From: Acidimicrobiia bacterium
GTDB lineage: Bacteria; Actinomycetota; Acidimicrobiia; Spongiisociales; ZC4RG35
Direction of reading: 5' to 3'
DNA: 64,000 bases
Assembly (NCBI GenBank): GCA_036555105.1
Contig: DATBMA010000114.1
Span: 869 to 64,868, forward strand
Shown here: positions 10,971 through 58,474 of the stretch, one piece after another
How the letters are laid out: each line of letters starts with the position of its first letter
Position numbering within the stretch: position 1 is the stretch's first letter
Notes under the pieces: model-generated
Seen by the model: only the letters and a program-made list of their open reading frames with translations
Database searches by the model: none
Told to the model about the DNA's origin: nothing
Made by a program: the position numbers and the translations under genes

Positions 10971-11029
10971 GAGTCTCAAGGTCTCACGGCTCAGGTCTCA
11001 CGTAAGACGTAAGACGTAAGACGTTCTTA
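10971..11029. repeat. GTCTCAC-family intergenic element R1
   Basis: agtctca-aggtctcacgg-ctcaggtctcacg, then (taagacg)x3 and the hairpin cgtaaga-cgtt-cttacg. It lies between convergent PRODH (+) and pspA (-), and the pspA stop TAA sits inside the terminal hairpin. Confidence 0.8.
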
Positions 11030-11776
11030 CGAGGTTTCCAGGCCAAGCTCCCTGCGGAGCTCCTCCAGCTTGGCGTCGGCCTGGCTGATGGAGATGGCCT
11101 CCCGCAACTCGGCCACCGAGCCCTCCGGTGTGGCCTCGCGCAGCTCGGCGTGAGCCTGCGCCTCCGACAGCCTGCTCTGGATCTTCTCCTCGACCCTCGC
11201 CAGTGAGGGCGCTTCGTTCTCCATCGTGGCGGAGATCGAGGCGACTGCCGAGTTCACGGCTTCCTGCATCTTCGCCTGCTCGAGCTGGCCAAGCAGCTGC
11301 ATCCGCTTCGCCGCCAGTTCCTGGAGCCGCATTGCATTCTGCCCAACGGCCTGTTTGGCCTCCTCCGCCTGCTTGATGGCGATTTCATACTGGTCCTTGA
11401 GGCTGTTGAGGTTGTTCTCAGCCCCTTGCAGCCTGAGGGCCATCGCCTGGGCGGCTTGAGTCCACTTTGCCTGGTCGGCGGTGTTGCCCGCGTTCTTGGC
11501 AGCATCGGCCTTCAGCAGTGCTTGTTTGGCCATCTCCCGTGCCTCGCCCACGGCCTTGGCGGCGTCCTCGATCTTTGCCTCGAGCTGGGTGCGATGGGCG
11601 ATGACCTTCGCCGCCTGAGTGCGCAATGCCTGGTCGCGCTGTTTGGCCTGATAGATGGCCTGCTCGATCTCCACGGCCGGATCCATCGCTTTCTCGGCCG
11701 CTCCCCGGAAGAGTTGTTTGATGTACTCCCAGATCCGTCTGAACAACTTGGGCTCCCGCCTATTTGGGAGCGGCAA
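11027..11776 (-). CDS. pspA: PspA/IM30 family protein (phage-shock protein A-like)
   Basis: Coiled-coil protein. Its N-terminus ...KLFRRIWEYIKQLFRGAAEKAMDPAVEIEQAI aligns to PspA ...[27 protein letters not shown].... The start codon at 11776 is TTG. Confidence 0.8.
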   Translation of the reverse strand: MPLPNRREPKLFRRIWEYIKQLFRGAAEKAMDPAVEIEQAIYQAKQRDQALRTQAAKVIAHRTQLEAKIEDAAKAVGEAREMAKQALLKADAAKNAGNTADQAKWTQAAQAMALRLQGAENNLNSLKDQYEIAIKQAEEAKQAVGQNAMRLQELAAKRMQLLGQLEQAKMQEAVNSAVASISATMENEAPSLARVEEKIQSRLSEAQAHAELREATPEGSVAELREAISISQADAKLEELRRELGLETS

Positions 11777-11785
11777 GCTTAGGAA

Positions 11786-11818
11786 AGTCTCGAGTCTCGA
11801 GTCGCAAGACGTAAGACT
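11786..11818. repeat. GTCTCAC-family intergenic element R2
   Basis: agtctcg-agtctcg-agtcgca-agacgta-agact, lying between the bcp stop and the pspA start. Confidence 0.7.
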
Positions 11819-11824
11819 TGGGAC

Positions 11825-12305: not shown

Positions 12306-12340
12306 AGTCGTGAGACCGCGCGACCGTCCGACCGTGCGTC
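12306..12340. repeat. GTCTCAC/GCGACCGT-family element R3 in a divergent promoter
   Basis: agtcgtgagaccgcgcgaccgtccgaccgtgcgtc, between the bcp start and the Fe-S oxidoreductase start. Confidence 0.6.
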
Positions 12341-14492: not shown

Positions 14493-14865
14493 ACCCCCGG
14501 CGTCGGCCCATCATGGCCCCGCTCAGTGGTGGCTCACCACCTAGAGTGGTGGATGGAGGCGATAGGAAAGGGCGCAGGAGTGGGGCTTTTCGAACGATGC
14601 CGTGACGACCGGCACGAATTCTCGCCGTCGTCGGCCGCAGCGGGCATGACTCGGAATGTCTGTGAGCGTTGCGGTCTGGTGCTGATCGACATGGACGGCA
14701 GGGCGCTGAGCAAGTCGGGCTTGTTCATGCCGTCCAAGCCCTCCCTGTTCTCGCTCCGCCACGAGCTGGACTTGTCCCAGCTCGAGGTGGCGGCCGCCCC
14801 GCGGAGCAGGCGGCACTGGAGAACACGAGGCTCGACCACCGCCGTGGCGTAATCTCCCTCGCCGG

Positions 14866-15384
14866 ATGGCGGCGCGGGTATGGATCGTTGCCTTGCTGGT
14901 CGGGGTTGCCGCCTGTTCGGGCGGGGAAGCGAGCCCCACAATGCCCGATCCTTCATCGCCGACCACCAGCGGACCGGTCGAAGCAGCAGCCGCCATCACG
15001 GCCTTTCGCGAGTGTCTTGCCCAGCACGGGGTGGAAGCTCCCGAGATCACCACGAGCGGCGCCGGCTCTCTGCAACTCTCCGAGCTGGCGGCGGCCGACT
15101 TGGCTCGACAGCCTTCGCTGCTGGGGCTGTGCGGAGCACCAGTCGTTGATGCCGGGCTGCTCGATCTGACCAGCCGGCCGGAGCTGGCAGCCGCTGTGCT
15201 CGCCGACCTGCAGGCCTTTGCCGAGTGCATGCGCTCGCACGGGATCGAGGGGTTCCCGGACCCGGTGCCCGGCTTCACAGGGATCGGCGATGCCTTCGAC
15301 CGCGATGAGGTTCCGTTCGGGCTGGACGGATACGCCGATGCCTTCAACGCCTGCAGTGAGGCGATGCCGGCCTCCGCCGGTTGA
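14866..15384 (+). CDS. Secreted lipoprotein, function unknown
   Basis: Signal peptide with lipobox LVGVAAC, a low-complexity Ser/Pro linker, and four Cys in two pairs. Confidence 0.45.
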   Translation: MAARVWIVALLVGVAACSGGEASPTMPDPSSPTTSGPVEAAAAITAFRECLAQHGVEAPEITTSGAGSLQLSELAAADLARQPSLLGLCGAPVVDAGLLDLTSRPELAAAVLADLQAFAECMRSHGIEGFPDPVPGFTGIGDAFDRDEVPFGLDGYADAFNACSEAMPASAG

Positions 15385-16456: not shown

Positions 16457-16963
16457 TTGATGGAGGTTTCCTTGACTGTGAACGGCCGGGCCGTCCAGTC
16501 CGATGTCGAGCCCCGGACTCTGCTCGTGCACTTTCTGCGGGAGAATCTGAACCTCACCGGCACCCATGTGGGCTGTGAGACCGGCTACTGCGGGGCATGC
16601 ACAGTCATGGTCGACGGCCGCACCGCCAAGTCGTGCACCCTTCTCGCCGTCCAGGCCGACGGCCGCGACATCACCACCATCGAGGGCCTGGCCGTGAACG
16701 GCGAGCTCCATGCCGTGCAGGAGGGATTCTGGGAGAGGCACGGGCTCCAGTGCGGCTACTGCACGCCCGGCATGATCATGTCGGCGGTTGGCCTCCTGCA
16801 GGAGAACCCCGATCCCACGGAGGACGAGATCCGGCACGGCATAGAGGGCAACCTCTGCCGCTGCACGGGGTACCACAACATCGTCAAGGCCATTGAGTAC
16901 GCCGCCGCCAGGTTGCAGGGGAAGACACCGCCACCGGCCGAATGGGAGGAGGTGTCGGCATGA
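16457..16963 (+). CDS. coxS: Mo-hydroxylase small subunit, (2Fe-2S)-binding (CoxS/CutS-like)
   Basis: Plant-type ferredoxin motif [11 protein letters not shown] and a second cluster motif CGYCTPGM...CRCTGY. Confidence 0.9.
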
Positions 16964-19344
16964 GCACCACCAGCGTTCTCGGCGGCGTCGTCAAGCGGCG
17001 CGAGGACCCGGCACTGGTCCGCGGCAAGGGGCTGTTTGTCGACGACCTCAAGGTGGCCGGCCTGGCCCACGTGGCCTTCGTCCGCAGTCCCCTGGCCCAC
17101 GCCAAGATCAAGTCGATCGACACCACGGCCGCCATCGCCATGCCCGGGGTGCTCGCTGTCTACACCGCGGCCGAGGTCAACCACCTTGGGCCGCTGGTCG
17201 CGCAGGTGGCGGTCGGAAAGCTCCGGCCGCTGCTGGCAGACGGCGTCGTGAAGCACGTTGGCGAGGCAGTGGCGATGGTGGTGGCCGACAACCGCTATCA
17301 AGCGGCCGATGCCGCCGAGGCGGTAGAGGTGGACTACGAGGCCTTGCCCGCAATAGTCGATCTCAAAGAGGCCCTGTCCGACAAGGCCAAGGTGCACGAC
17401 GACCTCGATTCGAACGTCCTGATCACCTGGGAGGCGGGACCTTGGGGCAATGCCGAGGGGATCGCCGAGACCCAGGAGAAGATCAAGGCCGCCAAGGAGC
17501 AAGAGGGGGCGGTGGTGGTCTCCCTCGAGATGGTCAACCAGCGCCTGATCCCCACGGCCATCGAGCCCAGATCGGTGGTGGCGGATTGGAACAGCGGCTA
17601 CGAGCGGTTCACAGTCCACTCCTCGACCCAGATTCCCCATGCGCTGGCAGGTGCGCTGGCCAAGACCTTCGGGCTGGCCTCGAACGCCGTGCGGGTGATC
17701 GCCCCGGAGGTGGGAGGCGGGTTCGGCTGCAAGCTCAACGTCTACAACGACGAGGTGCTGGTCTGCTTCGCCTCCCAGCAATTGGGCAGGCCGGTCAAGT
17801 TCACCGAGACCCGCCGCGAGTCGCCCAACTCGACGATTCAGGGTCGGGGTTGGATCGGCACCGCGACCATCACGGGAACGGCTGATGGGGAGATCCTCGG
17901 CTTCGAGCTCGTGGGCATCGCCGACATGGGTGCCTACACCCAGAACTTCACAGTCGCCATCCCCTTTCTCGGGACCTTCGTCGGCTCGGGCCAGTACGGC
18001 TTCCCCACCTATTGGAAGATCGACTGTGTGACCACACACACGATGACCACCGACGCCTACCGGGGGGCAGGCCGGCCCGAGGCGATGTACTACCTCGAGC
18101 GAATCGTCGACGCCTACGCCCGCAAGATCGGGATGGATGGGGCCGATGTGAGGAAGAGGAACTTCATCCCCGCCGAGGCGTTCCCCAACGCGGTGTCACC
18201 CATCGGCTTCGCGATGGACACTGGCCGTTACAACGAGAACCTCGAAGCACTGGTGGCGCTGCCCGCCTATGCCGACATGCTGGCGGAGCGGGATGCAGCT
18301 CGAGCCGAGGGGAAGCTGGCGGGGTTCGGCCTCTCCAGCTATGTGGAGGTGTGTGGGTTCGGCCCCTCGGCACTGACCGGCCTCGGGTTCTCATGGTCGG
18401 CCTACGGCCTGCCTTCGGCCTTCAACGGATCCGGTCTGGTGCGGGTGAACCCCGACGGCACTGCAACGGTGATCATCGGGACCGGGCCCTCGGGCCAGGG
18501 GCACGAGACCACGTGGGCGCAGATCGTCGCGGAGCAGCTGGGGATGTCCGTCGATCAGATCAGGGTGACTCACGGTGACTCCGCCGAGTCGCCTTTTGGG
18601 GTCGGCACCTTCGGCTCCCGCTCGGCGGCAGTCGATGGGTCGGCCACCTATGAGGCCGCCCTGAAGGTCAAAGACAAGGCCTCGAAGATCGCGGCACACA
18701 TGTTGGAGGCGAGCGAGAGCGATATTCGCTTTGAGGCAGGCGGCGCCCATGTGGCGGGCTCGCCCGAGAGCGCGGTGCCGTGGTCGGAGATCGCCCTCAG
18801 GGCCTACCAACCGCACACGCTGCCAGAAGGGATGGAGGGTGGGCTGGAGGCCCACGCCATCTTCAGCCCCGGCAACGCCACCTGGCCCTTCGGTGCCCAC
18901 GCCGCACTGGTGGAGGTTGACGCCGACACAGGTGACGTCCGGCTGCGCCGCTATCTGACGATGGACGACTGCGGCAACGTGATCAACCCGATGATCGTCG
19001 ACGGGCAGCTGCATGGAGGCCTGGCCCAAGGGGTCGGGCAGGCGATGTTCGAGGAAGCCATCTATGACGATGACGGCAATCTGCTGACCACGTCGCTGAT
19101 GGACTACCTGCTCCCCACCGCGGCCGACTTGCCGAACTGGGAGCTGCATCGGACCGTTACCCCGAGCAACGTCAACCCGCTCGGGGTCAAGGGGATCGGA
19201 GAGGCGGGAACTATCGGCTCGGCGCAGACAATCGTCAACGCCGTGGTCGATGCCCTTTCTCCCCTCGGGGTCGAGCACGTCGAGATGCCGGTGCGGCCGC
19301 GGCGGGTGTGGGAAGCGATTCAGGCAGCCAAGGGAGGTAACTGA
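16960..19344 (+). CDS. coxL: Mo-hydroxylase large subunit, form-II CoxL-like (molybdopterin-binding)
   Basis: 800 aa xanthine-DH-family large subunit. The active-site loop reads [10 protein letters not shown] (form II) rather than VAYRCSFR (form I CO dehydrogenase). Its ATG overlaps the coxS stop. Confidence 0.85.
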
Positions 19345-20186
19345 TGTACCCGCGCAAGTTCGATTACGCGGCGCCGACCACCCTGGCCGAGGCCCTGTCC
19401 GCGCTCTCGGGCGAAAACGCCAAGGTCATGGCCGGCGGGATGAGCCTGATCCCTCTGCTGAAGCTCCGCCTGCTGTCACCGGCTCTGGTCGTCGACCTCG
19501 GCCGGCTCGAGGGCCTCGACAGCATCGATGACCGCGGCGACCACCTGGCGATCGGGGCGCTGGTTCGCCATTACCAGACGGCTGGAGCCGAATCGTTGCC
19601 GGCAGCCCTGCGGACTGCGGCGGGCTGGACCGGGGACGTCCAGGTCCGCAATCGCGGCACCACCTGCGGCTCGGTTGCCCACGCCGATCTGGCCTCCGAC
19701 CAGCCCGGTGCCATCCTGGCGCTCGGAGGGACCATGGTCGCTCAGGGCCCCGGCGGCACCAGGGAGATCGCGGCCGACGACTTCTTCGTCGACGCCATGA
19801 CCACCGCACTCGGAGCTGATGAAATCCTGACCGAGATCAGAGTCCCGAAGAAGGAGGGCTCGTCGGCCTACGACAAGCTCGGCCGGAGGGGAGGGCACAC
19901 CGACTACGCGGTGGCGGGGGCGGCGGCCTGGGTGGCCAAGTCGAACGGTGCCATTTCGGACTGCCGGGTGGCGCTGACCGGCGTCAGCACCAAGCCGACG
20001 CTGGCCACCGCTGTGGCTGAGGCCGTGATCGGGACCGATGGCTCGGGCAAGGCGATCGAAGCCGCAGCGGCCAAGGCGGCTGACGGGATCCCGATTCTCG
20101 AGGACCTTTACGGCACCGTCGCATACAAGACCCATCTCGCCCAGGTCTTCACCAGGCGTGCCCTGACTGCCGCATTGGCAGGCTGA
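19344..20186 (+). CDS. coxM: Mo-hydroxylase medium subunit, FAD-binding (CoxM/CutM-like)
   Basis: FAD-binding PCMH-type domain and a CO_deh_flav_C domain; adjacent to coxL. Confidence 0.9.
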   Translation: MYPRKFDYAAPTTLAEALSALSGENAKVMAGGMSLIPLLKLRLLSPALVVDLGRLEGLDSIDDRGDHLAIGALVRHYQTAGAESLPAALRTAAGWTGDVQVRNRGTTCGSVAHADLASDQPGAILALGGTMVAQGPGGTREIAADDFFVDAMTTALGADEILTEIRVPKKEGSSAYDKLGRRGGHTDYAVAGAAAWVAKSNGAISDCRVALTGVSTKPTLATAVAEAVIGTDGSGKAIEAAAAKAADGIPILEDLYGTVAYKTHLAQVFTRRALTAALAG

Positions 20187-20190
20187 AGAG

Positions 20191-20226
20191 AGTCTCACGT
20201 CTCACGACCAAGACGTGAGTAGTGAG
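20191..20226. repeat. GTCTCAC-family intergenic element R4
   Basis: agtctcacgtctcacg-accaa-gacgtgag-ta-gtgag, an inverted array, lying between coxM and coxD. Confidence 0.75.
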
Positions 20227-20299
20227 CCTCGAGCCTCTGGACTCGCGACCCTCTCCTAGCCTGTCCCCAAATGTCCGAAGTCACCCGATCCGGCTCCAG

Positions 20300-21181
20300 A
20301 TGATCGAATCCATCGAGGACGTGGCCGAGCAGCTGGCCGGAAAGCAATACGTGGCCGATCGGGGGCTGGCGGTGGCCGTCTACCTGGCGCTGCGGCTGGG
20401 ACGTCCCCTGTTTCTCGAAGGTGAGGCGGGAGTCGGCAAGACCGAGGTCGCCAAGGTCCTCGCTGCTTGCCTGGATGCCGAGCTCATACGCCTGCAGTGC
20501 TACGAGGGCCTCGATATCGCCCACGCGGTATACGAGTGGGACTACCCGCGGCAGATGCTGGCAATACGCCTGATCGAAGCAGGCGGCACGCCGGAGAAGC
20601 TGGAAGTCGACGACATCATGAGCCGCGACTACCTGATTGCCCGTCCCCTCCTGCGAGCCGTCGAGGAGTCGGCGGCAGGGCGACGGCCAGTGCTCCTGAT
20701 CGATGAGATCGATCGTGCCGACGAGGAGTTCGAGGCCTATCTCCTCGAGCTCCTGTCGGACTTCCAGGTGACGATCCCCGAGATCGGGACCATTGCAGCT
20801 GGAGAGCCTCCGGTCGTTGTCATCACCTCAAACCGCACCAGGGAGATCCACGACGCCCTCAAGCGTCGCTGCATCTATCACTGGATCGACTATCCCGACC
20901 TCGAACGAGAGATCGAGATCGTCAAGCGCAAGGTCCCCGACCTGGAGGGGCGGCTGGCGCGCCAGCTGGCGCTGGCGATGGCCGATCTCCGGTCGTTCGA
21001 GCTCTTCAAACCACCGGGTGTGGCGGAGACCTTGGATTGGGCGTCAGCACTCAAGGTGCTGGATGCGGCCAGGCTCGATGCCGGGATTGTGAATGAGACC
21101 CTCGGCGTCGTCCTGAAGTACCGGGAGGACGTCGACTCGGTTCGCCGGCGGGGCCCCGAGCTTCTTGTGCACGAGGCGTAG
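20300..21181 (+). CDS. coxD: MoxR-type AAA+ ATPase (CoxD-like)
   Basis: Walker A GEAGVGKTE; an AAA_3/MoxR family member in the cox accessory position. Start taken at MIESIEDV; the upstream ATG at 20222 is possible. Confidence 0.8.
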   Translation: MIESIEDVAEQLAGKQYVADRGLAVAVYLALRLGRPLFLEGEAGVGKTEVAKVLAACLDAELIRLQCYEGLDIAHAVYEWDYPRQMLAIRLIEAGGTPEKLEVDDIMSRDYLIARPLLRAVEESAAGRRPVLLIDEIDRADEEFEAYLLELLSDFQVTIPEIGTIAAGEPPVVVITSNRTREIHDALKRRCIYHWIDYPDLEREIEIVKRKVPDLEGRLARQLALAMADLRSFELFKPPGVAETLDWASALKVLDAARLDAGIVNETLGVVLKYREDVDSVRRRGPELLVHEA

Positions 21182-21190
21182 CCCGGCTCG

Positions 21191-22300
21191 ATGCCCGCCT
21201 CATCGCTGTTGGTCGAGTTCACCCAAGAGTTGCGCGAGGGCGGCCTGCCGGTGCCATCTTCCACCGCGGCCGATCTCTCGACCGCGGCGGATCTGGTCGG
21301 CCTCGCCCGGCCGGCGGACGTCTACTTCGCCTTCCGCTCCCTGGTGGTTTCCCGGCACGAGGAGATCGCCGTCTTCAACCGGGTCTTCGTCGAGTTCTTC
21401 GGCACCAGAGGGCACATCGGCGACATCAGGGTCGGCGCTCCCGAGCCGGGCCGGCCCTGGGCTGTGTCTGCCAGGAAGGGGTTGATGGGAGGGGCTCCCG
21501 ACAACGTCGAGACAGAGGCGACCGCGGTGGGGGCTTCCAGCCGAGAGCGCCTGCGGCGCCGTGACTTCGCGGAGCTCAGCCCGGACGAGGTGAGAGAGCT
21601 GCGGTCCCTCGTCTCCCGGATGCTCTGGGAGCCGGGTTGGGTGCGCAGCCGTCGATACCGCCCATCCCGAGGGGGTGATCGCCCTGATCTGCGGAGGACC
21701 TTGCGCCAGGCCACGGGCCCGGAGGGGGACCTGATGCAGCTGGCCCGCTCCGAGCGGAAGCTCAAGCGCAGGCCGTTGATCTTCATCGCCGACGTGTCCG
21801 GGTCGATGGAGCGCTACTCGGAGATGTTGCTCTATTTCGCCCACGCTGCCAACGGGCGCCTCGGGAGGCTGGAGGCATTTGTCTTCGGCACGCGCCTGAC
21901 CCGCATCACCCGCCAGCTCGGTACCCGCGACCCGGCAGTGGCAGTGGCCGAGGTGGCCAGGGCCGTTCTCGACTGGTCGGGGGGCACTCGTATCGGGGAG
22001 TCGCTCGCCACGTTCAACCGCGAGTGGTCGCGGCGAGTCACCCGGGGTGGGGCTGTGGCCGTGCTCATCTCGGACGGCTGGGATCGAGGCAATCCCGAGC
22101 TCCTGGCAGATGAGCTCGCCCGCCTTCGACGCTCGGTGCACCGGCTCATATGGCTCAACCCCCTGGCCGGGAGGCCCGGCTACGAGCCGGTCACGCTGGG
22201 GATGAACGCAGCGCTCCCTTATGTCGACGACTTCCTCCCGGCTGCCACCTTCGATGACATGGTGGGGCTGGTCGACCTGCTGGAGTCGATCAAGCCGTGA
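21191..22300 (+). CDS. coxE: VWA domain protein (CoxE-like)
   Basis: MIDAS-containing VWA (...[14 protein letters not shown]...) in the usual position after the MoxR ATPase. Confidence 0.85.
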
Positions 22301-47541: not shown

Positions 47542-48243
47542 TCAGTCCTCGCCGGAGACGAGGCGTCTGGCCTTGACCAGTGCTTGTGCGGTCTCGGCGG
47601 CGATGGCGGCATCGCGGCAATAGGCATCTGCCCCCACCGCTTGGGCGAACTCCTCGTTCAGGGGCGCGCCGCCTACGAGGACGATGTAGTCATCTCTGAT
47701 GCCCTTCTCCTTGAGGGTGTCGATGACCACTTTCATGTACGGCATCGTCGTGGTCAGCAAAGCCGACATGCCGAGGATGTCGGGCTTGTGCTCCTCGAGG
47801 GCTGCCAGGTACTTCTCGACCGGGTTGTTGATGCCGAGGTCGATCACTTCGAACCCGGCTCCTTCCAGCATCATCGCCACGAGGTTCTTGCCGATGTCGT
47901 GGATGTCGCCCTTGACGGTCCCGATCACGACTTTCCCGACCGGCTCGGCCCCGGTTTCGGCCAGGAGCGGGCGCAGGATCTCCATGGCGGCCTTCATGGC
48001 GTTGGCTGCCATCAGCACCTCCGGCACGAAGAGGATGCCGTCTCGGAAGTCGATGCCCACGATACGCATCCCTTCCACCAGAGCGTCATTGAGCACACGG
48101 TCCGGCGGCCAGCCCCGCTGCAACAGGATGTTGGTGCCCTGGACCAGCTCTTCCTTCAGCCCGTCGTAGAGGTCGTCATGCATCTGCTCGACCAACTCGG
48201 GGTCGGCGAGGGATGAGAGATCAAGTTCTTGATCGTCTGGCAT
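47542..48243 (-). CDS. Corrinoid (cobalamin-binding) protein, MtgC/MttC-like
   Basis: B12-binding_2 helical cap followed by a Rossmann B12 domain with the DxHxxG motif (GDIHDIGKNLV). Confidence 0.85.
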   Translation of the reverse strand: MPDDQELDLSSLADPELVEQMHDDLYDGLKEELVQGTNILLQRGWPPDRVLNDALVEGMRIVGIDFRDGILFVPEVLMAANAMKAAMEILRPLLAETGAEPVGKVVIGTVKGDIHDIGKNLVAMMLEGAGFEVIDLGINNPVEKYLAALEEHKPDILGMSALLTTTMPYMKVVIDTLKEKGIRDDYIVLVGGAPLNEEFAQAVGADAYCRDAAIAAETAQALVKARRLVSGED

Positions 48244-50932: not shown

Positions 50933-51762
50933 TGGAGCAGTTCCTGGCGGGCCGGGTGGCGGTGGTAACCGGGGGAGCGTCGGGCATGGGCAGGGCGATG
51001 GCTCTCGCCTTCGCCTCCGCCGGGGCCGATGTCGCCATCGGGTCCTTGCTGGCCGAGGCTGCCGCGGCCCGGCCCGATGGCGAGCTCGGCTTCCTGCCGG
51101 GACAGGACCAGCTCAGTCAGACCGGGGCCGAGATCGAAGCCCATGGGGTCCGAAGCCTGGCAATGGGCCTCGACGTCACCTCGGATCAGTCGATGGACGA
51201 GTTCTTCGCTGCTGTCGAGTCCAAGCTGGGGCCGGTCGACATTCTTGCCAATGCCGCCGGCATCACCGCCGAGCAAACCATCACCGGCCACCCGGACCCT
51301 CTATGGCACAAGGTCATCGACGTCAACCTCAACGGGACCTACAGGGCGATCCGCCGTGCCCTGCCGGGCATGCTCGAGCGCAATTGGGGGCGTGTCATCA
51401 ACATCGCCTCTACTGCTGCCACCGTCGGCGCGGCTACTTCCGGCGCTTACTGCGCTTCCAAGGCCGGGGTGGTCGGCCTGACCAGGGCGGTGGCGCTGGA
51501 AGGCGCCCCGCACGGAGTCACCTGCAATGCCATCTCGCCCACCTGGGTCGACACCGCCTTCGCCCGCGACTGGATGAGCGAGATCGCCGAGCACGAGCAC
51601 CGCACCGGCGACGAGTACGTGGCAGACGTCAAGAAGTCGAACCCCCAGGGCCGGTTGATCGCCCCCTCCGAGATCGGGGCACTGGCCCTGTTCCTGTGCC
51701 GGGAGGAGGCTCTCGGGATCACGATGGAGGACCTCCGGGTCTCGGCCGGCAGCCTCTGGTGA
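50932..51762 (+). CDS. SDR-family NAD(P)-dependent oxidoreductase
   Basis: TGGASGMG Rossmann motif and a YxxxK catalytic motif (YCASK). Its ATG overlaps the betB stop (TGATG). Confidence 0.85.
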   Translation: MEQFLAGRVAVVTGGASGMGRAMALAFASAGADVAIGSLLAEAAAARPDGELGFLPGQDQLSQTGAEIEAHGVRSLAMGLDVTSDQSMDEFFAAVESKLGPVDILANAAGITAEQTITGHPDPLWHKVIDVNLNGTYRAIRRALPGMLERNWGRVINIASTAATVGAATSGAYCASKAGVVGLTRAVALEGAPHGVTCNAISPTWVDTAFARDWMSEIAEHEHRTGDEYVADVKKSNPQGRLIAPSEIGALALFLCREEALGITMEDLRVSAGSLW

Positions 51763-51765
51763 ACA

Positions 51766-51804
51766 GTCTCGAAGTCGCACAGTCGCACAGTCGCACGGTG
51801 AGAC
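51766..51804. repeat. GTCTCAC-family intergenic element R10
   Basis: agtctcga-agtcgcac-agtcgcac-agtcgcac-ggtgagac, immediately after the SDR stop. Confidence 0.75.
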
Positions 51805-51810
51805 TGAAAG

Positions 51811-51836
51811 GAAGGCCCCCGTTGCCGGGGGCCTTC
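51811..51836. terminator. Bidirectional intrinsic terminator hairpin
   Basis: gaaggcccccg-ttgc-cgggggccttc, between the convergent SDR gene and the betaine-binding-protein gene. Confidence 0.8.
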
Positions 51837-51862
51837 GGGTTGTCAATCGGCTGGAGTTCAGA

Positions 51863-52798
51863 TCAGGGCAGCCATGAGTCGACGACGGACTGGTTTGCCG
51901 CCACCCAGTCGGACGCCGCCTGCTCGAGGGTCTTTCCATCGAAGGCCACCGCGCCGAGCATCTCGATCTGATCATCGTTGGTCAGTTTCATGTTCGACAG
52001 GATCGTGTACGCGTCCGGCGCTTCTTCCTGCAGGCCCGACCACGCAGCCTTGAACAGCACATCCTCCGGGTAGTCACAGTCGATCGCCGCCGGGTCGGCA
52101 TAGCAATCGGCCGTGTAATCCGGCAGGGTCACGTTGACGAGGTCGTACTTGGCGAAGGCTGAATGCGGCGTCCAGAAGTAAAATACCGTCGGCTCCTGGT
52201 TCTCGTACTTGGTGTCGAGATCGGCGAGGATCGCTTCCTCGGATCCGGCGAACACCACTTGCATCGGCATTGCGAGGTTGGTGATTATCTGCTCGTCGTA
52301 CTGGGACCAGGACGAGTCGCCACCCAGGAATCGGCCGTTGTCGCCGGTGTCCGGAGTCGCGAACAGGCTAGCGAGTGCAGGATCCTGGAACCCTTCGTAC
52401 GTCGCCAGCTCCGGGTGCTCGTCGACCATGTACTTCGGCATGAACCAGCCGATCTTGCCGATTACGCCTAGCTCGCCGATATTGACGACGCTGCCGTCGT
52501 CGATGTATGCCTGCTCCGCGGCCACCACTCCGGAAGGCCAGATCTCAAGAACGGCATCGAGGGTTCCGTCCGAGAGCCCCGTGAACATCGTGTTCTCGTC
52601 GATCTCGGTTATCTCCACGGTGGTATCCGTGTTGGCTTCGATCACTTCTTTGGCGATCAGTGAGTTGAGGGCAGAGGCATCCCAGGGGTTGGTCACGAGC
52701 GAAATCGTGCCGCTGCCGCCTCCTCCCTGCGCACAGGCAGAAGCGAGCAGGCCCAACAGCCCTCCCACCGCCGCCATGGTCAGCACCTTGCGATTCAT
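51863..52798 (-). CDS. Glycine betaine/proline betaine ABC transporter substrate-binding lipoprotein (OpuAC/ProX family)
   Basis: Lipobox LLASAC. OpuAC-fold signature residues are present, including the Trp-rich ligand cage (WDAS..., IWPSG, WFMPKY). Confidence 0.85.
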   Translation of the reverse strand: MNRKVLTMAAVGGLLGLLASACAQGGGGSGTISLVTNPWDASALNSLIAKEVIEANTDTTVEITEIDENTMFTGLSDGTLDAVLEIWPSGVVAAEQAYIDDGSVVNIGELGVIGKIGWFMPKYMVDEHPELATYEGFQDPALASLFATPDTGDNGRFLGGDSSWSQYDEQIITNLAMPMQVVFAGSEEAILADLDTKYENQEPTVFYFWTPHSAFAKYDLVNVTLPDYTADCYADPAAIDCDYPEDVLFKAAWSGLQEEAPDAYTILSNMKLTNDDQIEMLGAVAFDGKTLEQAASDWVAANQSVVDSWLP

Positions 52799-52865
52799 CC
52801 GTTAGCTCCTCCTCGAAAACAGCCAGTCCAGGCACTGGAATTGGCCTGCGGTCTACATTACCGAC

Positions 52866-53906
52866 ATGGTGACCGCCCTTGGGGAGGCCAGCCCGTCCAG
52901 CCTCTTGGTGGACCACCTTTGGAAAGTGTTCGGCGACAGCCCTGGCAAGGCAATCGAGATGGCGGACAAAGGCCTCTCCCGGTCGGAGATCCTGGCCGCC
53001 ACCGGCTGCACGGTGGGAGTTCGGGACATCTCCTTCGACGTCTCCCCGGGAGAAACGTTCGTCGTCATGGGCCTCTCCGGAAGCGGCAAGTCCACACTGA
53101 TCAGATGCGCCGCCAGGCTGATAGAGCCCACCAAAGGGAGGGTCATCATCGACGGCGCCGATCTTCTCACCATGAGTGATGACGACCTCCGTCAGGTCCG
53201 ACGAAACAAGCTGTCGATGGTGTTCCAACATTTCGGGCTGTTTCCCCACCGTCGGGTCATCGACAACGTCGCGTTTGGCCTCGAAGTTCAGGGCATGTCG
53301 AAGTCCGAGAGGCACGAACGTGCCGAAGCTGTCATCAAGGTCGTGGGGCTCGAAGGCTGGGAAACCCACTATCCCCAGCAGCTCTCAGGTGGGATGCAGC
53401 AGCGCGTCGGCCTCGCCAGGGCGCTGGCCCTCGATCCACAGGTGCTGTTCTTCGATGAGCCGTTCTCGGCCTTGGATCCGCTGATCAGACGGGACATGCA
53501 GGACGAGCTGATTCGACTTCAGGCGGAGCTGCACTGCACGATCGTCTTCATCACCCATGACTTCGCCGAGGCGCTGAAGCTGGGCGACCGGATCGCCATC
53601 ATGAAGGATGGTGCATTCGATCAGATTGGCACTCCCGTCGAGATCGTCACCAAGCCCGCCACCGACTACGTTCGCGAGTTCACCAAAGATGTTCCGAAGG
53701 CCAAGGTGATCACAGCCTCTGCTGTGATCGATGCGGGAGTGGTGGCCGCACCGAATGCTCCCCGCCTGCACATGAACACACCGGTGGAGCAGTTGGTTCC
53801 GCACCTCCTTCACAGTGGCGACGCGGTGGCGATCTTCGACGACGCCGGCCGCATCCTCGGCGCGGTCGACCGGGAGAGCGTGGCCCGGGTCCTGACGGAG
53901 GGTTGA
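52866..53906 (+). CDS. Glycine betaine/proline ABC transporter ATP-binding protein (ProV/OpuAA) with a C-terminal CBS-like region
   Basis: Walker A GLSGSGKST, signature LSGGMQQRVGLARAL, and a Walker B region. The N-terminal extension is typical of ProV. Confidence 0.9.
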   Translation: MVTALGEASPSSLLVDHLWKVFGDSPGKAIEMADKGLSRSEILAATGCTVGVRDISFDVSPGETFVVMGLSGSGKSTLIRCAARLIEPTKGRVIIDGADLLTMSDDDLRQVRRNKLSMVFQHFGLFPHRRVIDNVAFGLEVQGMSKSERHERAEAVIKVVGLEGWETHYPQQLSGGMQQRVGLARALALDPQVLFFDEPFSALDPLIRRDMQDELIRLQAELHCTIVFITHDFAEALKLGDRIAIMKDGAFDQIGTPVEIVTKPATDYVREFTKDVPKAKVITASAVIDAGVVAAPNAPRLHMNTPVEQLVPHLLHSGDAVAIFDDAGRILGAVDRESVARVLTEG

Positions 53907-55852
53907 TGGCGACAGCCACTGCCACCCCAGCCGCCCTGCCACTCAGGCGAAGCCGGACCTGGCTGTGGGTCGTGGTCGTCATTCTGTTGTTGGTGGGTGT
54001 CCAGCTCGCCTTCTCGCGAACCTCCGGATTCCCCACCGGATGGAGGCTCGGGATCGAGAACACCATCGACCAGATTCCGGGTTGGCTGCGGTCCAACCGA
54101 CGCACCCACCCGATGTTCGTCTACTTTCTCCAGCCCCTCAGTGCTGGAATCAACGGGGGGCTCGAGCTGGTCGAGTCTGTTCTCAAGGCCATTCCATGGT
54201 TCGTCTTCTGCGCCATCGCCGCCTTCATCCTTCTTCGGGCCGGCCGGGTTTGGGCGGCGCTCCTGGCGATAGTTGGTGTCCTCTACTTCGGTGTGGTGGG
54301 CCTGTGGGAGGAGGGCTTGGAGACGCTGGCGTTGATGGGTGTCGCGGTCGCCATCGCGCTCCTGATCGGGATTCCCTTAGGGATATGGGCGGCTTTCAAC
54401 CGGAGGGTCGAGCGGGCGCTACGACCGATCCTCGACAGCATGCAGGTGCTGCCGGCTTTCGTCTATTTGATACCGGTCGTCCTGCTCTTTGGCATTGCCC
54501 GGGTGCCGGCGACCATCGCCACCGTGATCTTTGCGCTCGCACCGGCTGTACGGCTCACGACCCTCGGGATCAAGCAAGTGCCGCAAGCGGTGCTGGAAGC
54601 CGCCGAGATGATGGGGACCACACGCCGCCAGAAGCTCTTCAAGGTCCAGATCCCGATCGCGATGCCAACCATCCTGGCCGCTGTCAACCAGACGATCATG
54701 CTGGCACTCGGCATTGTGATCATCGCTTCGTTGATCGGTGCGGGGGGCCTCGGCACGCAGGTCTTGAACTCCCTCCAGAGGTTCCAGGTGGGCCAGGCAT
54801 TCGAGGCGGGCATAGCTGTGGTCGTGATGGCGATCTTGCTGGACCGGCTGAGCCGTACCTTCGTGGAGCGGCCCGAGCCCGGGCAAATCCCTTGGTATCG
54901 AAGCCGGAGGGTTCTGTGGATCGGGCTGGGGATCATCGTCCTGCTGGCCTTGGCGGGGCTCGTCGCCGGAGTCCGCGAGTTCCCTGACCAGTGGCGGGTC
55001 TCGTTCGCGCGCCCGATCGACTCCGCGGTCGACTGGGCGCAGAACAACCTTTACCTGATCGGGAATACCGGCCTCGGGACCAAGGCACTCAACGAGTTCT
55101 TGAACGTGTCGATCCTCAACCCGTTGCGTGACCTGCTTACCTTTCTGGCCTGGCCCGTTCTGATCCTCTTCACGGGATTCATCTGCTGGAAGGCGGGGGG
55201 CGGGTTGCTAGCCGTCTTCGCCATGATCTCCCTATTCGTAATCGGGGTCCTCGGAATGTGGGAGCTTGCTTTGGACACTCTCACCCAAGTGCTCGTGGCA
55301 GTGGTCCTTGCCCTGGCCATCGCCATCCCAGTCGGCGTCTGGTCAGCTCGGAGCAACAGGGTGAGAACGCTGCTTACGCCACTCCTTGACACGCTTCAGA
55401 CGATTCCGAGCTTCGTCTTTCTCGTTCCGGTGATCATGCTCTTCAGCGCCGGACGGGTGCCGGGGATCATTGCCAGCGTGTTGTATGCAATCCCTCCCGG
55501 TATCCGGCTGACGGACCTCGGCCTGAGAAGCGTTCCTGCCGAGACCCTCGAGGCTGCCGAATGCTTTGGGTCAACGCCTAGGCAGATGCTGTGGAAGGTC
55601 CAAGTCCCACTGGCGATGCCGACCATCATGGCGGGGGTCAACCAGGTCGTCATGCTGGCCTTGTCGATGGTCGTGGTCGGTGGCTTGGTCGGAGGGGGTG
55701 GCCTGGGATTCGAAAGCGTGCGTGCCCTCACTCGGGGTGAGACGGCTCTCGGCGTCAAGGCCGGCTTGGCGATCGTCCTCATGGCGATGATCCTCGATCG
55801 GTTGACCCAGGCGTGGGCAGCCAGGATGCAGCCGACGCCGGCGGCGGCCTGA
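53903..55852 (+). CDS. Glycine betaine ABC transporter permease (fused tandem ProW/OpuAB domains)
   Basis: 649 aa with two homologous permease halves, each carrying an EAA-like loop (EAAEMMGTTRRQ and EAAECFGSTPRQ). Confidence 0.85.
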   Translation: MMATATATPAALPLRRSRTWLWVVVVILLLVGVQLAFSRTSGFPTGWRLGIENTIDQIPGWLRSNRRTHPMFVYFLQPLSAGINGGLELVESVLKAIPWFVFCAIAAFILLRAGRVWAALLAIVGVLYFGVVGLWEEGLETLALMGVAVAIALLIGIPLGIWAAFNRRVERALRPILDSMQVLPAFVYLIPVVLLFGIARVPATIATVIFALAPAVRLTTLGIKQVPQAVLEAAEMMGTTRRQKLFKVQIPIAMPTILAAVNQTIMLALGIVIIASLIGAGGLGTQVLNSLQRFQVGQAFEAGIAVVVMAILLDRLSRTFVERPEPGQIPWYRSRRVLWIGLGIIVLLALAGLVAGVREFPDQWRVSFARPIDSAVDWAQNNLYLIGNTGLGTKALNEFLNVSILNPLRDLLTFLAWPVLILFTGFICWKAGGGLLAVFAMISLFVIGVLGMWELALDTLTQVLVAVVLALAIAIPVGVWSARSNRVRTLLTPLLDTLQTIPSFVFLVPVIMLFSAGRVPGIIASVLYAIPPGIRLTDLGLRSVPAETLEAAECFGSTPRQMLWKVQVPLAMPTIMAGVNQVVMLALSMVVVGGLVGGGGLGFESVRALTRGETALGVKAGLAIVLMAMILDRLTQAWAARMQPTPAAA

Positions 55853-55916
55853 CTGCCGAAGCACGGGAAGTCGCCGGTGAGGGCTTGTTAGCCTCGCCGC
55901 CCGTGAGAGGACTCAG

Positions 55917-58421
55917 GTGAGCGATCTTCCCCAGAGCGTGCGGGTCGTCGTCATCGGGGCCGGCATCAACGGCAACTCGCTGGTCGGCCACCTGGCCGAG
56001 CTCGGCTGGAAGGACATCCTCCAGATCGACAAGGGGCCGTTGCCCAACCCGGGCGGGTCCACAGGCCATGCCTCCAACTTCATCTTCCCGGTCGACCACT
56101 CCAAGGAGATGGCGATGCTGACGCTCGACAGCCAGCGTCAGTACGCCGACATGGGGGTCAACACGGTTTCGGGCGGGATCGAGGTCGCCCGCACTGCGGA
56201 GCGCATGGAAGAGCTGCGCCGCCGTATGACCAGCGCCACCTCTTGGGGGATCGAGGCCGAGCTGATCTCGCCCAGCCAGGTCAAGGAGCTGGTGCCGTTC
56301 ATCAACCAGGACATCGTGCTCGGCGGCTTCTACACACCAAGCGTCTCCGTGGTCGACTCATTGCGGGCCGGGACCCTGTTCAGGGAACGGGCCCAGGCCC
56401 TGGAGGCCCTCACGGTCTCGCCGAACACCGAGGTGCTCGGCATCGAGGTCGAGCGGGGCCGGGTCAGAGCGGTGGTCACCGATCGTGGCCGTGTGGAGGC
56501 CGAGTACGTGATCATCGCCTGCGGGGTTTGGAGCCCGCGGCTGGCTGAAATGGCCGGCGCCACCATCCCGCTGACCCCGGCGGTCCATCAGATGATCGAC
56601 GTCGGGCCGATCCCGATCCTGCAGGAGACCGGGGGCGAGATCGCATTCCCGATCGTTCGTGACATGGACACCTTCATGTACGAACGGCAGACGGCGGGAT
56701 CGATGGAGGTGGGGTCGTACGCCCACCGCCCGATCTTCCACGATCCCGACGACATCCCCTCCCTCAAGGAGGCCCGCCTCTCGCCGACCGAGCTCCCTTT
56801 CACTGCCGATGACTTCGACCCGCAGATGGAGGACGCGCTCGAGCTGATGGGCGACATATTGGGCGGGGCCGAGATCCGATACGCCATCAACGGCCTGCTC
56901 TCGCTCACCCCGGACGGGATGCCCCTCCTGGGGGAGACGGTGGAGGTCCGCAACCTGTGGTCGGCGTCGGCCGTGTGGATCAAAGAGGGCCCGGGAGTCG
57001 GTCGGATGTTGGCCGAGTGGATGACCGACGGATACCCCGAGCTTGATCCGCACTCCTCCGACATCGCCCGCTTCTACGACTACGGCCGGACCATGCATCA
57101 CATCCGGGCGCGATGCTCGGAGCACTTCAACAAGACCTACGGGATCATCCACCCCCGAGAGCAGTGGGCCACTGACCGCAACTTCCGGCTGGCCCCTTTC
57201 CATGCCCGAACCCAGGCATTGGGCGCCGTCTACTTCCAAGCAGGTGGCTGGGAGCGTCCTCACTGGTACGAGTCGAACGCCGGCCTCGTCTCCGACTACG
57301 GCGTCGAGGATCGGCCCCACGAGTGGGACGCCCGCTGGTGGTCGCCGATCATCAACGCCGAGCATCTGGCCATGCGGGAGCGGGTGGGGATGATCGACCT
57401 CTCTCCTTTCGTCATCTTCGATCTGACCGGGCCCGGGGTCTTCGACTACGTGCAACGGATGGCGGTCAACTCACTCGACGTGGCGGTCGGGCGGTCGGTC
57501 TACACGCCGCTGCTGACGCCTCAGGGAGGGTTCAAGGCCGACCTCACGATCATGCGGCTGGGAGAGGAGCACTTCCGGGTGGTGACCGGGGCCTTCGACG
57601 GCCCCCGTGACAAGCACTGGTTCCGCAAGCACCTCCCGGAAGACGGGTCCGTGCAGTTCGTCGACAACACCGGCGCCATCTGCACCATCGGCGTTTGGGG
57701 GCCGAAGGCACGCAACTTCCTGCAATCACTCACCGGCGACGACCTCTCCGATGATGGCTTCCCATACGGGTCGGTGCGCACGGTCGGCTTCGGGCCCCTC
57801 ATCACCCGCATGTTCCGCATCTCATATGTCGGTGAGCTCGGGTGGGAGATCTACTGCCCGATGGAAGGGGGGCTCGCCCTCTGGGACATGCTGTGGGAGG
57901 CCGGAGTGGGCCATGACCTGGTGGCGGTCGGAGCGGGCGTCTACGGCACCACCGGTCGGATGGAGAAGGGCTACCGCCTATTCGGGTCCGAGCTCGACAG
58001 TGAGTACACCCCGGTCGAGGCCGGCCTGGCCCGACCAAGGGTGAAGTCGGCCGACTTCGTCGGCAAGGAGGCGTACCTGGCGGCGCGGAAGGAGGAGCCG
58101 GCTGCGGTTCTCTGCACGCTGACAGTCGAGGACCACACCTCGGCGGCGGGAATCCCTCGTTACATGACCGGGCGGGAGCCGGTCCTCACGCTCGACGGCA
58201 AGCGGATCGTCGACCGCAAGGACAGGCCCTCTTACGTGACCAGCGCCGGCTCGGGCCCCTCGGTCGGCAAGTACCTGTTGATGGCCTACCTGCCGCCCGA
58301 GCAGGCGGTGGTTGGCACCGAGCTGCGGGTCATGTACATGAACGAGCAGTTCCCGGTCCAGGTGGCGGTGGCAGGCAGCACCCCGTTGTTCGACCCCGAC
58401 GACCGGCGGATGAAGGCTTAG
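55917..58421 (+). CDS. FAD-dependent oxidoreductase with a C-terminal GcvT (aminomethyltransferase) domain: dimethylglycine/sarcosine dehydrogenase family
   Basis: 834 aa. An N-terminal DAO domain (VVVIGAGINGNSLVGHLAELG) is followed by a GCV_T folate-binding domain and a GCV_T_C domain. The architecture is that of DMGDH/SarDH/DMG oxidase. Confidence 0.85.
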   Translation: MSDLPQSVRVVVIGAGINGNSLVGHLAELGWKDILQIDKGPLPNPGGSTGHASNFIFPVDHSKEMAMLTLDSQRQYADMGVNTVSGGIEVARTAERMEELRRRMTSATSWGIEAELISPSQVKELVPFINQDIVLGGFYTPSVSVVDSLRAGTLFRERAQALEALTVSPNTEVLGIEVERGRVRAVVTDRGRVEAEYVIIACGVWSPRLAEMAGATIPLTPAVHQMIDVGPIPILQETGGEIAFPIVRDMDTFMYERQTAGSMEVGSYAHRPIFHDPDDIPSLKEARLSPTELPFTADDFDPQMEDALELMGDILGGAEIRYAINGLLSLTPDGMPLLGETVEVRNLWSASAVWIKEGPGVGRMLAEWMTDGYPELDPHSSDIARFYDYGRTMHHIRARCSEHFNKTYGIIHPREQWATDRNFRLAPFHARTQALGAVYFQAGGWERPHWYESNAGLVSDYGVEDRPHEWDARWWSPIINAEHLAMRERVGMIDLSPFVIFDLTGPGVFDYVQRMAVNSLDVAVGRSVYTPLLTPQGGFKADLTIMRLGEEHFRVVTGAFDGPRDKHWFRKHLPEDGSVQFVDNTGAICTIGVWGPKARNFLQSLTGDDLSDDGFPYGSVRTVGFGPLITRMFRISYVGELGWEIYCPMEGGLALWDMLWEAGVGHDLVAVGAGVYGTTGRMEKGYRLFGSELDSEYTPVEAGLARPRVKSADFVGKEAYLAARKEEPAAVLCTLTVEDHTSAAGIPRYMTGREPVLTLDGKRIVDRKDRPSYVTSAGSGPSVGKYLLMAYLPPEQAVVGTELRVMYMNEQFPVQVAVAGSTPLFDPDDRRMKA

Positions 58422-58423
58422 GA

Positions 58424-58474
58424 CGGTCTCGCGGTCTCACGGTCTCACTGTGAGGCCTCGAAACCATGAGACCG
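58424..58474. repeat. GTCTCAC-family intergenic element R11
   Basis: cggtctcg-cggtctcac-ggtctcac-tgtgaggcc-tcgaaacc-atgagaccgg. The termini are inverted (cggtctc...gagaccg). Confidence 0.75.

Follow-up and report, generated by a model that had tools for sequence, protein, structure and literature searches.

The 64,000-nucleotide stretch analysed here (the window), from contig DATBMA010000114.1 of an uncultured Acidimicrobiia bacterium, is a chromosomal region of housekeeping and metabolic genes, as judged from Pfam domains in about 60 of its open reading frames (ORFs). Its GC content runs from 62 to 69%, and a gene map based on codon usage, consistent with independent gene calls on strain contigs, places 63 genes on it, with 93.7% of the DNA coding and the remaining 6.3% non-coding. 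Domain matches include an acyl-CoA carboxylase, proline metabolism, PspA, a peroxiredoxin, GlnE, NadE, MgtE and GreA. Scattered through the non-coding remainder are eleven elements made of contiguous 7- or 8-nt units, in most cases an array of GTCTCAC(N) followed by an array of the reverse-complement type, GTGAGAC(N). They form a dispersed family of tandem repeats in which arrays can change by whole units between strains.

Eleven arrays in the spaces between genes

The original prediction, made from the letters of the sequence alone, listed eleven sites, and all of them hold tandem 7- or 8-nt units when read directly. Tandem Repeats Finder recovers period-7/8 arrays at ten of the sites (the exception is 12306-12340) and, beyond the sites, hardly any multi-copy array of this period in the 64 kb. 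Such a density is far beyond chance. Within the window, both GTCTCAC and its chains are enriched over a shuffled background: the exact heptamer occurs 27 times against 12.1 ± 3.4 in shuffles, two copies separated by zero or one nucleotide occur 8 times against 0, chains of at least two units with at most one mismatch number 11 against 1.6 expected, and chains of at least four units with at most two mismatches 12 against 0.67. All 12 of the latter start in non-coding DNA, and three reach a few bases into the end of a neighbouring ORF. The chain scan of the window revealed no additional convincing member of the family. At 55903-55923, in the spacer upstream of a dimethylglycine-dehydrogenase-like gene, the run GTGAGAG GACTCAG GTGAGCG may be a decayed or degenerate remnant; three-unit chains of this kind occur at the background rate.

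The elements are given below with their units, the adjoining genes and the predicted fold (RNA of the transcribed strand, z-scores against shuffles).

10971-11029: two-armed, GTCTCAA-G, GTCTCAC-G, (GCTCAG), GTCTCAC, then three GTAAGAC and GTTCTTAC; between the convergent stops of proline dehydrogenase (10959) and PspA (11027); fold -22.1 kcal/mol, z -2.2.
11786-11818: two-armed, GTCTCGA twice, GTCGCAA, then (GAC)GTAAGAC-T; 6 nt past the peroxiredoxin stop (minus strand), upstream of the PspA start; fold -13.2 kcal/mol, z -2.3.
12306-12340: one-armed octamer array, GTGAGACC GCGCGACC GTCCGACC GTGCGTC; the sole element in a divergent spacer (peroxiredoxin and Fe-S/CCG oxidoreductase); fold z +0.28, no better than shuffles.
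20191-20226: two-armed, GTCTCAC twice, loop GACCAAGAC, then GTGAGTA GTGAG; 4 nt past the stop of a CO/xanthine-dehydrogenase-type FAD subunit, 73 nt before the start of an AAA (CoxD-like) gene; fold -19.6 kcal/mol, z -3.2.
22302-22339: one polarity, GTGAGAC GTGAGAC GCGAGAC GTGAG, with a GGAGTC...GACTCC clamp; 1 nt past the stop of a CoxE-like VWA gene, 13 nt before the XdhC/CoxI start; fold -14.6 kcal/mol, z -2.1.
29556-29658: the largest, heptamers GTCTCAC GCCTCAC GTCTCAC GTCTCGA, a spacer, then an arm of eight octamers (GTGCGACC/GTAGGACC) at 29594-29656 with a 16-nt super-period; adjoins the glnE stop (29659, minus strand), 53 nt before an M20 peptidase start; arms non-complementary, fold z +1.9, no better than shuffles.
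32357-32407: one polarity, GTCTCACC GTCTCACA GTCTCACG GTCGCACC, then TTGCACG twice; minus strand throughout, between the stop of a 94-aa ORF (32416) and the glnE start; fold z -0.5.
36578-36666: the best palindrome, GTCTCACG GTCTCAGG GTCTCGAG GTCTCACG, loop, GCGCGACC, then four GTGAGAC, with ends GGAAGTC...GACTTCC; adjoins the MgtE stop (36667, minus strand), 48 nt before an M23 peptidase start; fold -55.1 kcal/mol, z -7.2 (36572-36670 folded).
46530-46608: two-armed octamers, GTCTCGAG GTCTCGAA GTCTCGAG GTCGCATG, then GTGAGACC CCGCGACT GTGAGACC GTGCGATC GTGGGACC; overlaps the stop (46604) of a 98-aa PF13769 ORF, 3 nt before the start of a pterin-binding gene (minus strand); fold -36.4 kcal/mol, z -2.65.
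51766-51804: truncated two-armed, GTCTCGAA GTCGCACA GTCGCACA GTCGCACG, then one GTGAGAC; 3 nt past the stop of a short-chain dehydrogenase/reductase (SDR) gene, between convergent genes, with a separate GC hairpin (51811-51836) next to it; fold z -1.3.
58424-58474: two-armed octamers, GTCTCGCG GTCTCACG GTCTCACT, then GTGAGGCC TCGAAACC ATGAGACC; 2 nt past the stop of the dimethylglycine-dehydrogenase-like gene, 49 nt before the start of the gene for the beta subunit of an electron transfer flavoprotein (ETF); fold -32.2 kcal/mol, z -3.3.

The units at these 11 loci per 64 kb all lie within one or two substitutions of GTCTCAC/GTGAGAC. Forward arrays mix GTCTCAC(N) with GTCTCGA, GTCGCAC and GCCTCAC, while the reverse-complement type GTGAGAC(N) has the variants GTAAGAC, GTGCGACC, GTAGGACC and GTGGGAC. 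Elements measure 33-103 nt, with loops of 3-24 nt and a variable number of units per arm; a range of two to five copies, as first proposed, is too narrow for the eight octamers of the largest element. The arms of one element may differ in period (7 versus 8) and be non-complementary, as is expected if each arm was homogenised separately. The early description of long palindromes of paired arms holds for part of the family: in eight of the eleven a GTGAGAC-type array follows one of the GTCTCAC type and seven are more stable than shuffles (z -2.1 to -7.2), but three are not two-armed and four, the largest among them, fold no better than shuffles. The hairpin is thus common but not defining, and it is the tandem array that defines the family.

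All eleven elements fall within the non-coding 6.3% of the window (chance about 6e-14), as claimed for a dispersed and strictly non-coding family; three chains enter ORF ends by a few bases. Their attribution to operon borders, 5' leaders and divergent promoters was mostly wrong: eight follow stop codons in co-directional gene strings, two lie between convergent genes and one (12306-12340) between divergent genes. The distance from a stop codon to the start of the array is 0-11 nt. Within co-directional spacers, of which there are eight, it is 0-8 nt; there the arrays lie a median of 1.5 nt from the upstream stop versus 43.5 nt to the downstream start, and are closer to the stop in seven (p = 0.035); two adjoin the stop codon and one overlaps it. 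The element at 32357-32407 does not lie in a divergent promoter: the 94-aa ORF and glnE are on one strand. The deposited GTG start of glnE (32364) falls within the repeat unit GTGAGACC of this element (window 32355-32364), and is possibly a start-codon miscall due to the repeat. The codon-usage map favours a glnE start 9 nt downstream of the annotated GTG.

No T-run (U-tract) follows any of the eleven elements, none is among the terminator-like sites of the window, and U-tract terminators in the window show no excess over shuffles. The elements had been set apart from canonical terminators at the outset, and for lack of a U-tract behind any of them we reject an intrinsic (Rho-independent) terminator; the separate GC hairpins at 25534-25563 and 51811-51836 were confirmed, the latter directly after an element. 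With 21-32 nt, the C-rich arm is hardly long enough for a Rho loading (rut) site to be persuasive. CRISPR arrays, with repeats of 23-47 nt and unique spacers of about equal length, had rightly been discounted, since the units here are 7-8 nt long and contiguous and Cas domains are absent. The Pfam scan of about 60 window ORFs found no transposase, RAYT, Y1_Tnp, integrase or Cas domain, in agreement with the earlier statement that no RAYT or other transposase lies nearby. Scans of the window for tRNA and tmRNA genes, and for Rfam 15 families at the gathering score, returned no match. The tetranucleotide CGTC occurs only at internal heptamer junctions (..CACGTCTC..), never as a terminal unpaired tag, and octamer arrays do without it. 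No direct duplication flanking the elements was seen at the 11 sites.

The genes that flank the elements are functionally unrelated to one another. Two elements are located within a CO-dehydrogenase/xanthine-dehydrogenase-type cluster (16478-23422) with 2Fe-2S, molybdopterin and FAD subunits, AAA CoxD-like and VWA CoxE-like proteins and XdhC/CoxI. The gene content of 41268-48195 and 51863-61971 suggests a module for glycine-betaine/methylamine demethylation and one-carbon metabolism, comprising a corrinoid MttB-family methyltransferase, a RACo activase, a pterin-binding protein, DUF1638, a B12-binding protein and an MTHFR-like protein, together with an OpuAC-type ABC transporter, the dimethylglycine-dehydrogenase-like enzyme, ETF alpha and beta and a formate-tetrahydrofolate ligase. 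Elsewhere, the 538 nt at 14493-15030, upstream of a small HTH_17 (excisionase-type) gene and clpS, contain no ORF backed by codon usage or Pfam, and no repeat element, tRNA or Rfam match.

Variation among strains, relatives and distant lineages

Strain contigs were reached through members of protein clusters in several JGI and Logan samples. The same elements occur in these independent assemblies, which are 99.5-100% identical to the window (L001, L121, L129-L141, L148, L149). The population is present in the samples SRR11615638, SRR11613413 and SRR11615276 and in JGI 3300036836, 3300036842, 3300036847, 3300036848, 3300036858 and 3300041949. The proposal that unit number is polymorphic was borne out by the comparison. 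Over 7.15 kb, L121 differs from the window by 13 substitutions and 2 indels, and both indels lie inside 29556-29658: a loss of 7 nt in the heptamer arm (29566-29572) and a loss of 16 nt, one super-unit, in the octamer arm (29594-29609). Behind an identical SDR protein, the spacer with 51766-51804 exists in three haplotypes. The first is the short form of the window; the second (L130, L132) exceeds it by 49 nt between ACGGT microhomologies and has, besides a loop, a reverse arm that is complete; the third (L134) diverges from the stop codon onward and has an unrelated AGTACCA heptamer array instead. The 49-nt difference between long and short forms is internal to the element, and the divergence of L134 from the stop codon leaves no clean empty site. 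The strains part precisely at the SDR element or the terminator behind it, and the element marks a recombination or rearrangement boundary. In L130 and L132 the downstream gene sequence beyond it also differs (window 51760-51870).

Other elements vary less or not at all. The palindrome at 36578-36666 has two uncompensated substitutions in L148 and L149, the element at 20191-20226 keeps its unit count in L001 with two small changes at or inside it, and those at 32357-32407 and 58424-58474 are identical across four assemblies and in six other assemblies, respectively. Per kb, and on small numbers, we counted 10.8 substitutions and 8.1 indel events in the elements, 7.4 and 1.6 in other intergenic DNA, and 2.9 and 0.07 in coding DNA. 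Three Logan contigs end within elements (L122:3257-3293 and L123:3288-3324 in 29556-29658, L129:1813-1846 in 36578-36666), which indicates that the repeats fragment short-read assemblies of this population.

Beyond the strain level, the nearest GlnE homologues are about 55% identical, and their contigs are syntenic with the window (uvrB-greA-mgtE-M23 ... nadE | glnE-M20). Two of the three syntenic relatives carry heptamer arrays, often as inverted pairs, in the same spacers but with other units (L124:12827-12945, L124:3537-3642, L124:17037-17115 and L127:8940-9265). Directly after glnE, in the spacer before the M20 peptidase gene, the relatives have GCCACGA.../...TCGTCGC, and between uvrB and greA they have CCAGTCT and ACCGGTG; the spacer between the divergent nadE and glnE holds AGACGCY/TGGCGTC in L127, and another location in L124 an AGTGGGA/TCCCACC array. 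The third relative (L128) has compact spacers and no heptamer arrays. This pattern suggests long-lived, repeat-prone spacers in which the units turn over. A search of metagenomes for related loci with GlnE as the query gave no relative.

The unit itself also occurs more widely. In a pattern scan, other Acidimicrobiia metagenome-assembled genomes (MAGs) were found to carry the unit family of the window, including GTCTCAC, GTCGCAC, GTCCCAC and GTGCGAC. The pattern (GTCTCAC[N])3 is present in at least 119 stretches of GTDB representative genomes; the matches listed come from Gemmatimonadota, Bacteroidota (Chitinophagaceae, Saprospiraceae), Chloroflexota, Acidimicrobiia, Phycisphaerales and others. 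About a dozen of the MAGs have more than one locus each, and GTCTCAC is in most matches intermixed with one-step variants. Only 6 stretches with (GTCTCAC)3 were found in 2.9 million viral contigs, and a phage origin or vector was dropped on this account. Unit specificity was controlled for on metagenome contigs, with heptamer arrays of four units that fit GT[S][W][S]AC: in the first 120 stretches (L151-L270), taken in scan order and without phylogenetic correction, the dominant unit was GTCTCAC/GTGAGAC in 83, GTCACAC in 22, GTCAGAC in 8 and GTGACAC in 7. GTCTCAC/GTGAGAC is clearly not a random unit.

Among the matches listed, GTGAGAC precedes GTCTCAC at 33 of 35 two-armed loci outside the window (19 of 20 in genomes, L002-L120, and 14 of 15 in metagenomes, L151-L270), whereas the order is reversed in all eight two-armed elements of the window (Fisher p = 3e-7). 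Both exceptions outside, L042 from an Acidimicrobiia MAG and L229, have units like those of the window. At these other loci (GTCTCAC)n is preceded by 45 nt that fold more stably than the 45 nt following it (p = 0.001; dG <= -15 in 21 versus 7), so that the arrays often lie directly 3' of GC hairpins, and the two arms often flank a GC-rich, terminator-like hairpin.

Origin and possible roles of the arrays

The sites are probably a lineage-specific family of intergenic simple-sequence repeats (SSRs), driven by slippage and with at most a weak effect on RNA. Tested on the window, the elements have the tandem units, the many loci, the bias to non-coding DNA, the strain variation and the inverted pairs that characterise heptamer SSR families. 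Such families are taken to need two or more head-to-tail copies of a unit of 5-11 nt, as a rule 7 nt, and the units of an array may be heterogeneous. We consider this identity and a mutational mechanism, taken jointly, to be likely; a selected function of any kind at the RNA level is rather doubtful, and we do not think a dedicated terminator or operator role likely.

The mechanism that we propose builds on changes seen directly in the alignments, namely the unit-scale indels, the 49-nt difference bounded by ACGGT and the turnover of units at conserved spacers of relatives. Slipped-strand mispairing at replication could let arrays grow, shrink and homogenise arm by arm, and template switching could create or renew the opposite arm; the long and short SDR alleles would derive from a microhomology deletion at ACGGT. 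Arrays would persist where a change in length is harmless, just outside reading frames, because a 7- or 8-nt period shifts the frame and the GTGAGAC strand has TGA in all three frames. Most elements lie inside co-directional gene strings and are therefore probably transcribed, and in the transcript two-armed copies could form imperfect stem-loops immediately behind the upstream cistron. Our best guess for an effect is a weak, copy-number-dependent RNA stem-loop that might impede 3'->5' decay or partly insulate neighbouring cistrons.

Several points weigh against this interpretation. Transcription of the elements and any role in RNA are things that we infer. Random slippage alone does not account for one unit family in 11 unlinked spacers. 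It also leaves unexplained why GTCTCAC arrays are 4-12 times commoner than same-frame controls (83 of the 120 matches listed) and why arm order is fixed, in one sense in all eight cases here and in the opposite sense in 33 of 35 elsewhere among the matches listed. Three elements (20191, 32357 and 58424) have a constant number of units in 2-7 assemblies; hypervariability on the time scale of strains is thus not a property of every copy. As for the weak RNA effect, the four of eleven copies that do not fold beyond shuffles and the uncompensated substitutions in the best hairpin speak against a strongly selected structure.

The two-armed copies might instead be selected RNA stem-loops, acting as 'I-shaped' factor-independent terminators, attenuators or 3'-end stabilisers, with their repeat nature secondary; the functional analogy would be with the REP/BIME palindromes of enterobacteria described below. 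A start 0-11 nt after stop codons suits such a role, as do the seven folds with z <= -2.1, of which the best reaches -55 kcal/mol (z -7.2). The lack of an excess of U-tract terminators would leave room for other 3' structures, and elsewhere (GTCTCAC)n lies directly 3' of GC-rich hairpins (21 versus 7 at dG <= -15; p = 0.001). Nevertheless, four copies lack structure beyond shuffles, the arms of the largest element do not pair, termination would be harmful in the tight co-directional gene strings that hold eight of the eleven, and one element immediately precedes a separate canonical GC hairpin. Strains differ by uncompensated changes and by the loss or gain of whole arms. Non-complementary arms, whole-arm loss and unrelated flanking genes together argue against a strongly selected structure or an operator, and we regard this alternative as unlikely.

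A little less likely still is that a process specific to the sequence, and not random slippage, has shaped GTCTCAC/GTGAGAC arrays into a class that spans phyla. The unit bias, the polarity of 33 in 35 among the matches listed elsewhere (purine-rich arm 5', pyrimidine-rich arm 3', in many cases on either side of a GC hairpin) and the mirror order in all eight elements here would imply a conserved reader or generator together with a lineage-specific switch of polarity. Candidates would be an RNA- or DNA-binding protein, a mechanism linked to termination, or a strand-specific bias of replication or repair. If confirmed on whole genomes, the cross-phylum unit bias and the polarity rule would make the questions 'why heptamers' and 'why GTCTCAC' testable.

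A related proposal, which we judge improbable, is that a sequence-specific protein binds the arrays as multimeric sites, either on DNA (nucleoid-associated or regulatory, iteron-like) or on RNA (a ring or repeat protein). It would explain why 11 spacers share one unit family, and the recurrence of this unit in several phyla at several loci per genome, its over-representation against control units and the fixed polarity of the arms are in its favour. HutP and TRAP read NAG triplets, one unit per subunit, and (GUGAGAC)n would present GAG every 7 nt. An unidentified binding partner has also been proposed for the TAACTGA and Nostoc heptamers (PMC4679880; bioRxiv 10.1101/2022.06.06.494920). Against a dedicated reader stand the functionally unrelated flanking genes, the heterogeneity of units within arrays, the differences in copy number, and even in the presence of a whole array, between strains with identical flanking proteins, and the use of other units by relatives in the same spacers; within the window no candidate protein is linked to the elements.

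It is very improbable that the elements are non-autonomous mobile palindromes (REP/BIME-like, or similar to miniature inverted-repeat transposable elements) moved in trans by a transposase encoded elsewhere. The family is dispersed and palindromic with AGTC...GACT-type ends, it sits behind ORFs where the neighbouring genes are unidirectional or convergent, as REPs do (PMC3733652), and the sequence downstream of the identical SDR gene differs between strains. However, it has no fixed length or consensus beyond the 7/8-mer and its arms vary by whole units; it lacks the 8-9-bp stem, the 4-5-nt loop and the unpaired GTAG/CGTC tag; no target-site duplications were seen at the sites and no transposase, RAYT or integrase domain in the roughly 60 ORFs; and microhomology deletion accounts for the long and short alleles. 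An artefact of assembly, or a chimera, in a MAG built from short reads can be dismissed, since JGI and Logan assemblies made independently from different samples contain the elements, either identical in every base or differing on the scale of units, although several Logan contigs ending inside elements show that the repeats disturb assembly.

GTCTC, GGTCTC and CGTCTC are type IIS restriction sites. An origin connected with these sites, or by repeat synthesis with a nickase and a polymerase of the kind seen in vitro, was set aside because the window has no restriction-modification or nickase gene and many units contain no such site.

Comparison with known repeat families

The mycobacterial interspersed repetitive units (MIRUs) and other variable-number tandem repeats of mycobacteria have units of about 40-100 bp, often with short ORF overlaps. 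The window elements share with them an intergenic position within operons, a copy-number polymorphism between strains and an actinobacterial host, but their units are 7-8 nt long and whole arrays span 30-100 nt. With no 40-100-bp units, the MIRU reading is rejected.

A resemblance to repetitive extragenic palindromes (REPs) and the mosaic elements built from them (BIMEs) had been noted together with that to MIRUs, and here too the defining features are absent. A REP is a palindrome of 20-40 bp whose stem measures 8-9 bp and whose loop has 4-5 nt, and it carries at one end an unpaired tag, GTAG or CGTC; REPs with the GTAG tag are associated with RAYT transposases (PMC3733652). By these criteria the REP/BIME reading fails, as there is neither a fixed 20-40-bp unit nor a terminal GTAG/CGTC tag. 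What the window elements have in common with REP/BIME is that they are high-copy extragenic palindromes that follow ORFs, with unidirectional or convergent genes on either side, and that they are plausibly expressed as hairpins in RNA. They differ in being variable-number arrays of 7/8-mers, with no tag, no fixed palindrome and no RAYT in the window.

Tandem heptamers are a closer match. To our knowledge, intergenic heptamer families were noted in 1990, 2007 and 2015, and no function or origin has been accepted for them. The short tandemly repeated repetitive (STRR) sequences of the cyanobacterium Calothrix, reportedly described by Mazel in 1990, are said to be tandem heptamers amplified at many chromosomal sites. 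Heptanucleotides are the commonest long simple-sequence repeats (LSSRs) of prokaryotes, for which polymerase slippage was proposed, according to a summary of the work of Mrazek et al. (2007) in PMC4679880. As far as such summaries go, the window elements agree with STRR and LSSR in being tandem heptanucleotides at many chromosomal sites and differ in unit and lineage, and the inverted two-arm layout and the adjacency to stop codons do not figure in the accounts summarised.

The direct repeats of TAACTGA that MacGregor (2015, PMC4679880) described in marine Beggiatoaceae, cyanobacteria and Bacteroidetes are likewise tandem heptamers (2-6 copies) at many intergenic sites, with a strong preference for one unit over related heptamers. 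As in the present case, the unit turns up here and there in distant phyla without an evident mechanism of transfer, and strains differ by indels in 7-nt steps. TAACTGA repeats are mostly direct, with one inverted set, and lie a few nucleotides upstream of start codons, a position that suggests translational control (PMC4679880); the window elements follow stops and are mostly inverted pairs.

The original prediction considered the family unnamed, but the class to which it belongs had already been published, in the TAACTGA work (PMC4679880) and for Xanthomonas (GGGAATC) and Nostoc PCC 7120 (GGGGA(C/T)T) (Rehm et al. 2015, PMC4692102). In Xanthomonas there are about 185 GGGAATC arrays in each of two genomes, with heterogeneous units and a modal length of four; 89-93% are intergenic, on average 28 nt from the upstream ORF versus 160 nt to the next one, with mostly co-directional and few divergent neighbours and 70-75 convergent inverted pairs. 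These arrays vary between species and are mostly transcribed, and no function was found for them (PMC4692102). In Nostoc, heptamer arrays affect the expression of a reporter, with no mechanism given (bioRxiv 10.1101/2022.06.06.494920).

The likeness of the window elements to the Xanthomonas and Nostoc families is extensive: dispersed and heterogeneous heptamers, an intergenic position near the end of the upstream ORF, inverted pairs, variation in length and unrelated neighbouring genes. The differences are that the unit of the window has no G-tracts and hence cannot form a G-quadruplex, that heptamer and octamer periods are mixed, sometimes inside one element, that the elements lie a median of 1.5 nt from the stop rather than an average of 28 nt as in Xanthomonas, and that the host is an uncultured member of the Acidimicrobiia. 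The arm order in the window is, moreover, opposite to the usual order of GTCTCAC/GTGAGAC elsewhere.

The GTCTCAC[N] family is the Acidimicrobiia counterpart of the GGGAATC family of Xanthomonas, the GGGGAYT/STRR families of Nostoc and Calothrix and the TAACTGA family of Beggiatoaceae. It adds a high-GC actinobacterial lineage to the heptamer-repeat families, and its strain-resolved alleles show how such arrays change. On the practical side, the elements break short-read assemblies, a start codon was called within a repeat unit, and the elements could serve as strain-typing markers in soil metagenomes. That a unit unable to form G-quadruplexes recurs with the same proximity to stops, the same inverted arms and the same unit-scale polymorphism as the families of Xanthomonas and Nostoc suggests that this shared anatomy is independent of G-quadruplex chemistry.

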